Source: an uncultured Candidatus Saccharibacteria bacterium
GTDB lineage: Bacteria > Patescibacteriota > UBA1384 > XYA2-FULL-43-10 > 1-14-0-10-43-13
Reading direction: 5' to 3'
Length of the DNA stretch: 32,000 nucleotides
Assembly (NCBI GenBank): GCA_964543385.1
Contig: CAZIYE010000002.1
Coordinates: 96,715 to 128,714, forward strand
This document shows, piece by piece, positions 4,947 to 9,751 of the stretch. Made by a program: the position numbers and the translations under genes. The notes beneath the pieces are model-generated. The model saw only the letters and a list, made by a program, of their open reading frames with translations. It was not told where the DNA came from and did no database searches. Every line of letters begins with the position of its first letter. The stretch's first letter is position 1.

Positions 4947-6065
4947 TTATTTTAATTTACTCAAAAATTCTTTGGTATGATCAGCTCTTTTCTTTACGGA
5001 ATCGTCTGAATAATAGTTTGGTATTAAAGCGCCATCTATAGAAACATGTAATCTTCCGTCCATAATAGGATTGTTCATGGCTATATTTCTAATAATATAT
5101 GAGCCTACTGATCCTGCTAACATTGATGCTGTAGATAGCTGGGGCCATGTCTTTATTGTTTTGCCCACCTCGAGTAATGAGTCTTGCATACGGCTGACGG
5201 CGTTTTGGGGTTGAACAATTTTTAGAGATAGAGTTACGCGGTCCTGCGGCGATAGTTTGCCATGACTATTTTTGATAAGTTTGATGTCTTCTTCTGATAT
5301 TAAGCCGTGGAAAGGTTTCAAGCTAGATTTCAAGTCATATCTTTCTATGTCAACCATAACATTATCACCATTATCGGTAATCATTATTAAAGGTATTTTT
5401 TTATCTTTAGCTATTAGGCGCATATGAAGCTTCAGATGCAGGCTGTCTATCTCGTCAAAAACTATATCAGAATCTTTTACAAATTCATCAATATTGTCTT
5501 CACTTATACCATCAGAGAAAATTTGAACATTTATATACGGATTTATCTCATAAATTCTTCTTGCTAGAGCGATGGTTTTCTTTATATTAACGGATAGTAG
5601 CTCTGTTACAATTCGATTCATATTCGATGTGGAAATTGAATCACCATCAGCAATCTTAATGTTTTTGCATCCGCCTTGCATAACAGTAGCTAATACAATA
5701 TTACTGCCAACGCTTAGGCCGGCAACTGCAAGATTTGTATTCCGATATTTATCTTGTTCGGCGTGGTTTATTAAATATTTGTTGCGCGATGTTAGAAGAG
5801 TATAAAAGTCATTCTCTTCTAATGCCCTTATGACTGTTTTTCTCCATGGATAGACCACCAATGTCCCCAAGGTCTCTTGTTTAAACTCTGACAATGTCAA
5901 TTGTAGGTCAGCTTCTTTGCCTATACATGTCAGTTCAACCAATTCTTCAGCTTGGCACTCAAATATGTCGCTATAAACATATCCTTCGGAATTGAGTTTC
6001 AGCAAAATACTATCAAGCTCTTCTTTTGAGAAAAAATTAATTATATCTGGTTTAAATTGATCCAT
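4947..6065 (-). CDS. ThiF/E1-like adenylyltransferase (Rv1355c-like ThiF module) with a ~100-aa N-terminal extra domain
   Basis: 372 aa. The Rossmann nucleotide loop NLAVAGLSVGSNIVLATVMQGG is followed by IKIADGDSISTSNMNRI (the D..D....N.NR signature of the ThiF/MoeB/E1 family). The start overlaps the upstream gene by 25 nt, with a GGGAG SD inside it. Confidence 0.7.
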   Translation of the reverse strand: MDQFKPDIINFFSKEELDSILLKLNSEGYVYSDIFECQAEELVELTCIGKEADLQLTLSEFKQETLGTLVVYPWRKTVIRALEENDFYTLLTSRNKYLINHAEQDKYRNTNLAVAGLSVGSNIVLATVMQGGCKNIKIADGDSISTSNMNRIVTELLSVNIKKTIALARRIYEINPYINVQIFSDGISEDNIDEFVKDSDIVFDEIDSLHLKLHMRLIAKDKKIPLIMITDNGDNVMVDIERYDLKSSLKPFHGLISEEDIKLIKNSHGKLSPQDRVTLSLKIVQPQNAVSRMQDSLLEVGKTIKTWPQLSTASMLAGSVGSYIIRNIAMNNPIMDGRLHVSIDGALIPNYYSDDSVKKRADHTKEFLSKLK

Positions 6066-7591
6066 TGCTGTTTACTCCCTCTATCGTTACTAATTGATCC
6101 ATAAGGCATGAATACAACTCTAGGCTTAGCCTTTTCTTGGCCAATTTTTTCAACAAGAGTTTTGTATTCATAGTTGTTCTTTAGAAGATTCGAATAAATC
6201 TTTTCTCCAACATTTTTTTTTAATTCATCATTTGGTTCGATATTCTTATTCAATTCAACGGCTATTTCAATATATTGATTTCTTAAATCATCATACTTCG
6301 TGGTCATCGACATTCTAGTTGTCAATTTATCTATAATAGCTTGATCTTCAAGCCCTTTTCTAACTGTCTGCGGATAGATATTCAAGCCGTAGAGAGTAAT
6401 CGTTTGGTCTGATTTCCCGTAGAGGACAATGAAAGGTAATTTCCATATGGGAAGATTTAGTTTCTTGGCCTCTTCTAAAATATCTATACCTTCATTTTTA
6501 AATAAATTAATCATTTCATGGAAGCTATAGATAGTTCCATAATCGTGGAGGTTATAATCTAAAAGTGGCATTCCACCGACAGTAGAGCAAATTAATTCAT
6601 TGTCTACGCATTCAAAGTGTTTTAAATGTGGATGATATTGAACAAAAGTAGAAACCGTTCTGCCATTGAAGAGTTTTTCAAGCAGCTTATCATTTTTGGC
6701 ACATAGTCTTTTTATCATGATGCTAATAGGGGTCTCATGTCCAAGAATTGCTGCGTCAGCTGATCCATATGTATTCACGCTAGAATTGTAGTAGTCTTTA
6801 ATCTTTGCTTTCTTGTACAAATATTCGCGCCAATCTTCACTTATTGCCTCTGCGCCAAAGATGAATTTAAGGTTATACGAACCCCAGTCAAATCCCCTGG
6901 AAATACCTTCTTCAATTGTATCCTTTACAAAAGGAGGATATCCGCAGATCACTATTTGCTCATAGTTGTTTCCTATTTCGCTAATAATTCTTAAAATGCT
7001 GTCCATGGAAATACCTGGAGTTATGACGGAAAGATCATACCCTCTCTGTGCTATTCTTAGGCAGGAATTTAGCGTAAATACACCGGCAACATACATACCC
7101 ATTGAATAGGCATCGACTATTAATGTTCTTTTCTTGTCTATGTGAAAAAAATCCTTCAAGATCATCTCATAAATAATCGTTGTTTCTAGCTCCAAGTAAT
7201 TGCCTCTAGGCCAAAAATACGGTTTTCCGCTTGAACCAGAACTGACAGAAACCATCTTAATGGAGTCCATATAATTGCCGGGAAGTAGTTCTGAAATAGG
7301 ATATTCGTGCAGGTAATTTTTTTTGTCTATAAAACGGTTCGATTTGTTTGCTGAAAATTGCTTATAGGCGGGGACACTATTTTTTATTTCGGCCTCAAGC
7401 TCTGAGTATATTTCTTTCGAATATTTCTCGATCTCTTTAGGGTCAGTATTTTTTAGATAATTTAAAGAAAAATCAACGTCATAAATTTTAAGAGCCTCAA
7501 AAAAAGGATTGCTTGAATTGTTAATCTGTCCAATTGCTTGGTCTTTAAAATATGGTTTTAATGTTGTATAGTTATTAAAGATACTTTTCAT
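6041..7591 (-). CDS. Adenylate-forming enzyme of the ANL superfamily (PaaK / coenzyme F390 synthetase-like)
   Basis: VSSGSSGKPYFWPRG matches the (S/T)SG(S/T)TGKP AMP-binding loop of PaaK-type ligases. A later YGSADAA segment and a C-terminal lid-like region are present. I use the ATG at 7591 (MKSIFNNY...). The track's GTG at 7624 would overlap the divergent gene start. Confidence 0.65.
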   Translation of the reverse strand: MKSIFNNYTTLKPYFKDQAIGQINNSSNPFFEALKIYDVDFSLNYLKNTDPKEIEKYSKEIYSELEAEIKNSVPAYKQFSANKSNRFIDKKNYLHEYPISELLPGNYMDSIKMVSVSSGSSGKPYFWPRGNYLELETTIIYEMILKDFFHIDKKRTLIVDAYSMGMYVAGVFTLNSCLRIAQRGYDLSVITPGISMDSILRIISEIGNNYEQIVICGYPPFVKDTIEEGISRGFDWGSYNLKFIFGAEAISEDWREYLYKKAKIKDYYNSSVNTYGSADAAILGHETPISIMIKRLCAKNDKLLEKLFNGRTVSTFVQYHPHLKHFECVDNELICSTVGGMPLLDYNLHDYGTIYSFHEMINLFKNEGIDILEEAKKLNLPIWKLPFIVLYGKSDQTITLYGLNIYPQTVRKGLEDQAIIDKLTTRMSMTTKYDDLRNQYIEIAVELNKNIEPNDELKKNVGEKIYSNLLKNNYEYKTLVEKIGQEKAKPRVVFMPYGSISNDRGSKQQWINLNQI

Positions 7592-7615
7592 GATTCTAAT
7601 ATAGCATATTAAATT

Positions 7616-8740
7616 ATGAGCCACAATAATAAAGAGGCAGCGCTTGTCCTGGGGGGACTAGGCTTAATAGGTGGGTCACTAGCCCAAGAACTTACAAAGA
7701 ATTTTGACGTGTTTGTTGTGGACAGAAGAGAGCCTAAGGAAAAAAATGGAAGTGTGAAATATTATGTATCCGATGCGCTAAGTGTCTCAAGCCTTGAGAA
7801 GTTAATAATTGAACATGAGCCAAGACTAATCGTTAATTCAATAAATATAGCCACTATTTTTTCAGATAACCCTGAGGCAAACTATAAAAAGCTTGTTAAG
7901 TTTTACTATAGTTTGTATCAGATATTTAGTAAGATCTCACATCCGATACATTTCATTCAGATGGGGACAACTGGTTCTGGTGGACTAGGCTTTGATATTC
8001 CTTTTACTCATGGGGACAGAATAGAAGATCTCCCGATCATAAACAAGGCTGCTTTTGCCGGTGTTTCGACGGCAATGCTGACCCTTATGTCCAGGTCTTT
8101 TGGCCATAGAGTAAAAGTGTCGGAAATTAAACCAGGCTTGTCAATTTTTCGAAAAGATATTGTTAAAGAAAAATTTGATGGCAGTAACCTTATCCTTATA
8201 GATGGTGGTGAAAGTGGTTTTTATACATACAATGAACTAGCGCTCCTCACATGTTATATGGGTTTTACAACAGTAGACACGATCATTGATAAAGTTATGA
8301 AAATTATTGGTGGCGATAAAAGCTTCCATAATCACTGTGTTTATGACACGATAGGCAGTCTCAATGGTGCTATTATTACGCAAAATCACCTAGACCATTG
8401 GCGTTTGGTTAAATATCTTAATATTATGAAAAGACTGTCTGGCAAAGACTATATAATAGCTACGGGCAAACTTGGCCCTCCAAGCATCACAAGAGACTTA
8501 ATTCTTACATACCTAAAAAAGGAAAATCCTGATGTCGACGAGGAATCTTTTGCTAAGAAAATCAAGGGTGATGCAAATATAGTCAATACAATAAAATTCA
8601 TCAAGAAGAATGATAAAACTCTTTATGAATATCTATTAACTGAATTGAATTACGAAAACTATCTCAAAGCTATATATACTAAAGATGAGCCGTGGGAAAA
8701 CGTTAAAGCTATGTTGGCTAGACAGAAACTGATAGTATAG
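7616..8740 (+). CDS. NAD(P)-binding Rossmann-fold protein, atypical (no clear SDR YxxxK seen)
   Basis: 374 aa. N-terminal ALVLGGLGLIGGSLAQEL (GxxGxxG) is followed by VVDRR at the end of beta-2. It is divergent from the ANL/ThiF operon with only about 24 bp between the start codons. Confidence 0.6.
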   Translation: MSHNNKEAALVLGGLGLIGGSLAQELTKNFDVFVVDRREPKEKNGSVKYYVSDALSVSSLEKLIIEHEPRLIVNSINIATIFSDNPEANYKKLVKFYYSLYQIFSKISHPIHFIQMGTTGSGGLGFDIPFTHGDRIEDLPIINKAAFAGVSTAMLTLMSRSFGHRVKVSEIKPGLSIFRKDIVKEKFDGSNLILIDGGESGFYTYNELALLTCYMGFTTVDTIIDKVMKIIGGDKSFHNHCVYDTIGSLNGAIITQNHLDHWRLVKYLNIMKRLSGKDYIIATGKLGPPSITRDLILTYLKKENPDVDEESFAKKIKGDANIVNTIKFIKKNDKTLYEYLLTELNYENYLKAIYTKDEPWENVKAMLARQKLIV

Positions 8741-8760
8741 ACTAATCCACAGTTTTTCTT

Positions 8761-8789
8761 TTGACAATCTATGTGATCGCAGCTAAACT
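8761..8789 (+). promoter_or_regulatory. Sigma70-like promoter TTGACA-N17-TAAACT inside a 410-nt non-coding gap
   Basis: ttgaca at 8761..8766, a 17-nt spacer and taaact at 8784..8789. It begins 20 nt after the stop of the upstream gene. Confidence 0.45.
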
Positions 8790-9035
8790 ATATCAGTTCG
8801 CCATACTCTTATAGTTTATAGCGGACCTAGCTAATCATGGTCGTGCATTTATCTTGCTAGAAAGTGATGTGGCAACATCACAATAATCAATCAATCCTCA
8901 AGGACTGATTTTTATTTTGGGCAGATTCCGGCTGCTCTTGCCAATCCAACCGTCTGGTTGTGTATTCCGGCAGAACATCACTGACTATTTTATTGCACGT
9001 ATTAGTCAACTAGATGTTAGCACTTTTCTATCCCT

Positions 9036-9150
9036 CCTGATCCACCCTGTTTGTAAAAAATGTGCAGATGGATCAGGATAGCGGTTTGTTCACTGTATAA
9101 CCGCTGATAACAAATCAGCGTGTTGACAAAAAATCACACGCTGATTTTTG
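9036..9150 (+). promoter_or_regulatory. Attenuator-like leader: three hairpins with mutually exclusive 2:3 pairing, ending in a terminator
   Basis: Hairpin 0 is cctgatcca (9036..9044) / tggatcagg (9069..9077). Segment 1 agcggtt (9080..9086) pairs with 2 aaccgct (9099..9105). Segment 2' cgctgat (9102..9108) pairs with 3 atcagcg (9114..9120). Segment 3 atcagcgtgt (9114..9123) pairs with 4 acacgctgat (9136..9145), followed by tttttgttt. Confidence 0.55.
9112..9150 (+). terminator. Strong rho-independent terminator immediately upstream of the 9152/9176 ORF
   Basis: 10-12 bp stem (a)atcagcgtgt / acacgctgat(t), a 12-nt loop and the T-run 9145..9149 followed by gttt. Confidence 0.7.
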
Positions 9151-9151
9151 T

Positions 9152-9751
9152 TTGATGTTTATGTATAATTTACTTATGAAAATTTTATCCAAAGAAAAAT
9201 CTCGGGAGATATTAATCAAATTATTATCACTTTTCCAATGCGATCAGTTTGAGAAGATGGATAAATATCTCAATTCAAAGCCATTCAGATTCTTCAAATT
9301 CTATGCAAGCAATTCTTGCGAGCTCCCATTTTTATTTTGGGATGAAAAAGAAGCCAAGAAGATATTTGATTCCGCGATTAGTATTAGTGGTGCGGTAAAG
9401 GATAGTGATGGTGGTGTATACGGTATTGGTAATTATGATTATTTAGATAAATTAGCAAACTTTTTGAAAACACAGGGCTTTGTAAATATATACGGCGCTG
9501 GTAATTGGGATCCCTTCGGCAATGTTGGTCACAGTGCCATTGGCCTAAATGTTAATGAAATTAGGGGTATTAGCAGACATAACTACGATGACATCTATTT
9601 CTTTGATGAAAATTTTACCTGGATGCTCGCATTTAATCATCATAGAAACGGATTTTTTGCCGGATCAAAAGAAATGATAGAAGATTTTTCATATTCAGTG
9701 CCCGAATTTCGCAAATACCTCAGAGAAGAATGCTCCTGCTGCGGGCTTTGA
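9152..9751 (+). CDS. Hypothetical protein ending in a Cys-rich tail ...FRKYLREECSCCGL
   Basis: 199-aa ORF with no recognisable domain. A more likely start is the ATG at 9176 (MKILSKEK...), 6 nt after tataat (9164..9169). Its last ~25 codons recur twice downstream as remnants. Confidence 0.6.
   Translation: MMFMYNLLMKILSKEKSREILIKLLSLFQCDQFEKMDKYLNSKPFRFFKFYASNSCELPFLFWDEKEAKKIFDSAISISGAVKDSDGGVYGIGNYDYLDKLANFLKTQGFVNIYGAGNWDPFGNVGHSAIGLNVNEIRGISRHNYDDIYFFDENFTWMLAFNHHRNGFFAGSKEMIEDFSYSVPEFRKYLREECSCCGL

Follow-up and report, generated by a model that had tools for sequence, protein, structure and literature searches.

The present analysis concerns a structured intergenic region in the genome of an uncultured Saccharibacteria bacterium (G000; 0.90 Mb, 98.7% complete, approximately 38% GC), located in the window C2:96715-128714, by which is meant the whole 32,000-nucleotide stretch that was analyzed. 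The region lies between a reductase-like gene and a DUF6756-like ORF, and the individual sequence features that the first-pass annotation had listed for it were all present with their coordinates correct. The features discussed below are as follows.

7616-8740, plus strand, reductase-like gene upstream of the gap, weak Epimerase/Rossmann match
8741-9175, intergenic gap of 435 nt between the reductase-like gene and the DUF6756-like ORF
8761-8789, plus strand, sigma-70-type promoter: TTGACA at 8761-8766, 17 nt, TAAACT at 8784-8789; predicted start near 8796
8796-8918, plus strand, part A, a candidate small RNA of ~122 nt colinear with stand-alone RNAs of G019, G022, G002, and G006
8796-8801/8821-8826, plus strand, helix P1 of part A, GUUCGC/GCGGAC, in the same alignment columns as in the relatives
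8827-8831/8856-8860, plus strand, helix P2 of part A
8857-8863, plus strand, CUAGAAA motif of part A
8864-8881, plus strand, hairpin P3 of part A, -8.0 kcal/mol
8889-8918, plus strand, first terminator T1, a weak hairpin with U-run, -5.2 to -6.5 kcal/mol
8919-9150, plus strand, part B, a structured 3′ extension with hairpins at 8919-8937, 8947-8960, 8970-9021, 9035-9078, and 9080-9105, then T2
9060-9107, plus strand, 15-codon ORF with product MCRWIRIAVCSLYNR, not a gene
9080-9086/9099-9105, plus strand, pairing 1:2, AGCGGTT/AACCGCT, -8.0 kcal/mol
9102-9108/9114-9120, plus strand, pairing 2:3, CGCTGAT/ATCAGCG, -8.3 kcal/mol
9112-9153, plus strand, strong intrinsic terminator T2, stem 9114-9123/9136-9145, 12-nt loop, U-run, -16.2 kcal/mol
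9114-9123 and 9136-9145, plus strand, the two arms of T2, ATCAGCGTGT and ACACGCTGAT, then a T-run
9176-9751, plus strand, downstream ORF, weak DUF6756 match

The gap had been described as noticeably richer in GC than its surroundings, and the direction of the difference holds (38.4% versus 36.5% and 35.6% in the flanks, with 42% at the centre), but it is marginal, the window as a whole having 38.2%. No tRNA was found in the window, no further copy of the element was found in G000, where it is single-copy, and phage records and viral contigs gave no match to it. At the other end of the reductase-like gene, 7616-8740 on the plus strand and 6041-7624 on the minus strand are divergent ORFs whose 5′ ends share 9 nt (7616-7624), and because of this overlap the GTG start of the minus-strand ORF was probably called too far upstream.

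The element was found in one genome of the same genus, G001, with homology that starts inside the upstream operon and stops at 9153, just past the U-run of T2. Identity between the two genomes reaches 95% at 8856-8918 and 91% both at 8919-8972 and in the terminator; the flanking upstream coding sequence has 81%. Purifying selection on the gap is indicated because its identity exceeds that of the flanking coding sequence, in which differences by codon position are 46/23/144 over about 375 codons. The corresponding counts are 10/12/10 in a 54-codon plus-strand frame and 4/8/6 in a minus-strand frame of the gap, and one of the longest gap frames has a stop codon in G001. A small protein on either strand was rejected on the basis of this substitution pattern and the G001 stop codon, and the first-pass view that the gap has no credible ORF is thereby borne out. 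At 9035-9078 identity with G001 is 67%, with the helix kept by compensatory changes. The two sequences gave an RNAalifold consensus of 91 pairs, of which 5 are altered at both positions, and a consensus fold of -85.0 kcal/mol on the plus strand versus -74.7 kcal/mol on the minus strand, while the G000 fold of 8796-9175 had z = -4.7 relative to shuffles. The covariation signal is thin because only two G000-type sequences exist (n = 2, G000 and G001).

Relatives were detected in other genera of the family. In G014, of a different genus (g14) in the same family, a reductase-like homolog is followed by a structured gap (z = -3.7) that ends in a terminator with the T2 stem ATCAGCGT/ACGCTGAT. This stem occurs in G000, G001, and G014 only among 162 genomes of the class, and in the G014 copy both bases differ in each of its top two pairs. 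The G014 core has its own promoter, TTGACC-17-TAAAAT, and an RNA of ~245 nt extends from it to the common terminator. A BLAST search with the G014 element found a ~50-nt core in G002 and G006, and a pattern search for the core added G019 and G022. In all four a near-consensus promoter immediately precedes the core and a terminator comes after it, which together define a stand-alone RNA of ~110-130 nt. Its parts are a 7-bp P1, with or without one bulged base, the loop AAAUGCUAGCCAC, and then UCGG; 3′ of UCGG come a variable helix that closes on the CUAGAAA motif, then a hairpin and the terminator. P1 of the stand-alone RNA has pair changes on both sides in 3 cells, and 7 of 500 shuffles attained as many.

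A covariance model, R1, was built on the 5′ domain (P1 with the loop AAAUGCUAGCCAC, UCGG, and CUAGAAA) and matched 5 of the 23 family genomes, namely G002, G006, G014, G019, and G022; among 151 sampled genomes of the class it found nothing beyond those five. With G000 and G001 added, the distribution in the family is patchy. Searching species-representative genomes with the core pattern brought up three records, corresponding to G014, G002, and G006, and no new genome. One public record, L064, which is the G002 sequence, is labelled Candidatus Berkelbacteria, and in the genome set it falls in the same family as genomes labelled Saccharibacteria. Two metagenome matches to a core 20-mer were dismissed as chance occurrences in unrelated contexts, and matches in G005 and G021 were inside coding sequence or spurious.

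How part A relates to these RNAs is a matter of several lines of comparison. R1 gave no match on the window with default filters, and with filters off the best hit was 10 bits (E = 0.07, 8829-8866), which is below significance; the P1 loop in G000 and G001 differs from the AAAUGCUAGCCAC loop. Because the R1 score is not significant, the case for homology of part A comes from colinearity, from its 3′ half, and from position. The segment 8755-8925 is colinear with promoter and RNA of G019, G022, G002, and G006, which represent four other genera of the family, with a start at AGTT, and the order of promoter, P1, P2 closing on CUAGAAA, P3, and terminator is that of the window element as well. The first-pass claim of a promoter belonging to the gap itself stands, since the promoter is present and is kept in G001 as TTGACA-17-TAAAAT; it aligns with those of the four stand-alone RNAs, the -35 being common to the aligned loci and the -10, TAAACT, identical in G000 and G019. 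T1 is identical to the G019 terminator at 28 of 31 positions. The RNA of G019 or G022 aligned to 8885-8917 with a local score of 38-39, against a null of 18 ± about 2.4, and the 5′ domain of G002 aligned to 8850-8877, around CUAGAAA, with p about 0.003. Taken together, the colinear order, shared terminator, and alignment scores lead us to read 8796-8918 as a diverged ortholog of the stand-alone RNA. The earlier suggestion of a ~120-nt RNA ending at 8918 is likely to be right, as the T1 hairpin is also the end point of the homologous stand-alone RNAs of G019 and G022.

An alternative explanation could be that the gap is a mosaic, hairpin-rich intergenic element whose modules were recombined at a variable site and are transcribed incidentally, with no RNA function. 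Such an origin would agree with the patchy distribution and with the observation that the modules have different relatives, T1 being shared with G019 and G022 and T2 with G014. It would not account for the occurrence as a single copy per genome, the conserved promoter directly in front in every genome, the retention of helices through compensatory changes, or a core better conserved than the neighbouring coding sequence, and we consider it rather improbable.

Neighbouring genes were also compared for association with the RNA. In G002, G006, G019, and G022 a gene for a 268-270-aa protein of the ThiF family always lies divergent to the RNA (L035 1630-2436, L040 578-1390, L048 and L049 1711-2520); its best NCBIfam matches, all below cut-off, include ThiF and Rv1355c-type models. 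The only relative of this gene in G000 is a 372-aa ThiF/E1-like cassette gene at 4947-6065, with 29% identity and ~2.7 kb away. An obligate link between the RNA and the 269-aa ThiF gene was rejected, as the gene is present and the RNA missing in G010 and G017. In G000, G001, and G014, the element is always positioned 3′ of the reductase-like gene on the same strand, with the RNA start 20-130 nt past the stop codon of this co-directional gene, and no terminator was noted between that stop codon and the start of the element. These positions are what would be expected of a long structured 3′ UTR of 7616-8740 that stabilizes or regulates the mRNA and is possibly released as a 3′-UTR-derived RNA. 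That explanation is quite unlikely, however, given that in 9 genomes of other families the homolog of the reductase-like gene is not followed by a gap of this kind, an observation on which a link to this gene was itself rejected, and that the related RNA in G002, G006, G019, and G022 is not adjacent to a reductase-like gene, having instead its own promoter and its divergent ThiF-family neighbour.

Part B has no promoter matching at least 9 of 12 positions in front of it. An octamer, ATTCCGGC, occurs twice in it, at 8925-8932 and 8964-8971, 39 nt apart, and both copies are identical in G001 and located in the best-conserved stretch of part B; the two copies might serve as a protein site or form a CCGG kissing pair. 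In comparison with the G014 extension, part B has the terminator and the position in common and nothing further (score 24, p about 0.04). Origin of part B as a tandem duplicate of part A was rejected, only the terminator tails being alike (p about 0.02), and a likeness by eye between its 5′ end and a canonical P1 was not significant.

The 3′ end of part B is where the first-pass annotation placed its principal claim, that the last 115 nt form a terminator, antiterminator, and anti-antiterminator controlling 9176-9751 through a leader peptide, a ligand, or a protein. The mutually exclusive 1:2, 2:3, and 3:4 helices that it described in G000 are energetically real (-8.0, -8.3, and -16.2 kcal/mol). 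Co-transcriptional folding windows favoured 2:3 in transcripts with a 3′ end at 9122-9140, whereas the full transcript favours 1:2 together with 3:4 (-26.0 versus -20.6 kcal/mol). An upstream segment complementary to the 5′ arm over at least 7 nt was found for 2 of 179 terminator-like hairpins genome-wide, T2 included, and the other of the two is an A/T run. A simple terminator scan missed the hairpin at 9114-9145 only because of its 12-nt loop; within that loop there is also a perfect TTGACA, at 9123-9128. Exclusive pairings that are real, nearly isoenergetic, and rare in the genome are consistent with an attenuator, as are the end of T2 26 nt before the ATG of 9176-9751 and the lack, for this ORF, of a Shine-Dalgarno sequence and of a promoter of its own matching at least 9 of 12 positions, such that its transcription may depend on read-through.

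Comparison across genomes argues the other way. The conserved block stops at 9153, and beyond it G001 has an unrelated gene for a 149-aa protein where G000 has the DUF6756-like ORF, so that the element does not appear to be a leader dedicated to the next gene, as had been proposed. G014 has a third unrelated gene, for a secreted protein, located ~330 nt past the terminator with a promoter-like site upstream, as judged by eye. Among the 7 genomes with the element or a relative, downstream proteins are unrelated except within one genus. The 15-codon ORF at 9060-9107 exists and lacks a Shine-Dalgarno sequence, as first described, but it is not a conserved leader, its ATG being ATT in G001. The three-way design is present in weaker form in G001, where 2:3 is weakened and has lost its place as the favoured intermediate, and is without equivalent in G014, whose terminator has a 5′ arm that pairs with another segment. 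In addition, there is no match to a known leader or riboswitch family, and part A has stand-alone homologs. The unlinked downstream genes, the lost leader ATG, and the state of 2:3 in G001 and G014 thus leave an attenuator of the next gene unsupported, and we regard that explanation as having little chance of being correct. Some read-through into 9176-9751 is possible, since that ORF has neither Shine-Dalgarno sequence nor recognized promoter. A perfect TATAAT lies at 9164-9169, its end 6 nt from the ATG of this ORF, and because of this spacing a leaderless transcript of 9176-9751 is also possible. Since in all three genomes the conserved block ends after T2 and unrelated genes follow it (from 9153 onward in the window, from 1913 in L002, and from 3110 in L019), the 3′ end of the RNA locus borders a variable gene slot.

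Known RNA families were searched as well. With Rfam 15 at gathering score there was no match in the window or in 5 related loci, and the scan that the first-pass annotation had recommended returned no riboswitch, T-box, leader family, or large ornate RNA; relaxing the cut-off to E = 10 brought only noise. RNase P RNA and tmRNA were rejected as identities for the element, both being found elsewhere in G000. SRP RNA and 6S RNA were rejected for want of resemblance, for the patchy distribution, and because the genome likewise shows no Ffh or FtsY domain. As observations on the genome itself, searches of G000 for small and large SRP RNA came back empty, for RF00169 even with the cut-off relaxed to E = 10, 6S RNA (RF00013) was not found in it, and its six-frame translation contained neither an SRP54 GTPase domain (PF00448, covering Ffh and FtsY) nor an SRP_SPB M domain (PF02978), with 14 of 14 controls matching. 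The SRP pathway thus looks absent or unrecognisably diverged in this 98.7%-complete genome.

The patterns detected are consistent with the gap being a family-restricted, putative small non-coding RNA locus with its own promoter and two successive terminators, as opposed to a cis-acting leader, and we think this is probably the correct account. The region has what would be looked for in a stand-alone small RNA gene, namely promoter and terminator of its own, a non-coding sequence, and conservation independent of its neighbours. Transcription would start near 8796 from the promoter at 8761-8789 and proceed first through part A, which at ~122 nt would be the diverged ortholog of the ~110-130-nt stand-alone RNA, with its P1 of 6-7 bp, of a few genera of the same family. 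The weak T1 may then stop part of the transcripts at 8918 as a short form, with read-through of ~230 nt of conserved hairpins to T2 at 9150 giving a long form of ~355 nt. That the long form matters is suggested by the best-conserved block, 8856-8972, which straddles T1. The RNA would act in trans, by base pairing or by protein binding, and a trans-acting regulatory or protein-binding RNA is most likely, being the most economical reading of the locus. No partner gene of the RNA was found, and complementarity to the 5′ regions of neighbouring genes gave no signal (z from -1.3 to +2). The 1:2, 2:3, and 3:4 pairings would be part of the 3′ domain of this RNA and may tune the stringency of T2 before the variable gene slot. 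A more elaborate version of the same idea is that the locus represents a two-terminator riboregulator, and a new RNA family, in which the ~122-nt and ~355-nt forms differ in activity and 2:3 gates read-through of T2 into a slot of exchanged cargo. No promoter belonging to the cargo genes after T2 is recognisable in G000 or, apparently, in G001; this version is speculative, and we would give it only a slim chance.

The element was also compared with characterized systems. Spot 42 and RsaE are stand-alone bacterial sRNAs with a sigma-70 promoter and an intrinsic terminator. Like them, the element has its own promoter, a length in the range of 100-350 nt, several hairpins, and a Rho-independent terminator, and it is conserved independently of flanking genes within a narrow taxonomic range. 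It departs from them in belonging to an uncultured CPR lineage, in combining two nested terminators with a long structured extension on the 3′ side, and in being a candidate RNA with no recognised target, seed, or partner protein. Classical attenuators include those with a trp-type leader peptide, the T-box, and protein-mediated antitermination. The element resembles these in its overlapping 1:2, 2:3, and 3:4 pairings and in a 3:4 terminator located just before a co-directional ORF. It differs in having no conserved leader ORF, T-box, or Rfam match, in the gene that follows not being conserved, and in a design that is not conserved beyond the genus. DapZ and MicL are 3′-UTR type I sRNAs, positioned behind a gene and transcribed from their own promoter. 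The arrangement in G000, G001, and G014, with the RNA behind a co-directional gene and no terminator seen between the two, is similar, whereas the related RNA in the four other genomes is not behind the reductase-like gene.

A literature search returned nothing on small RNAs of Saccharibacteria themselves, nor any paper on a small regulatory RNA from other CPR bacteria. The reach of the finding is limited, the RNA being seen in only 7 genomes of one family. It also carries a caution for annotation, in that a terminator with an upstream complement does not amount to an attenuator unless linkage to the downstream gene has been checked. For the biology of these organisms, the element is a candidate small regulatory RNA in an ultra-small, host-dependent bacterium, better conserved than the neighbouring gene and with stand-alone relatives in sister genera.
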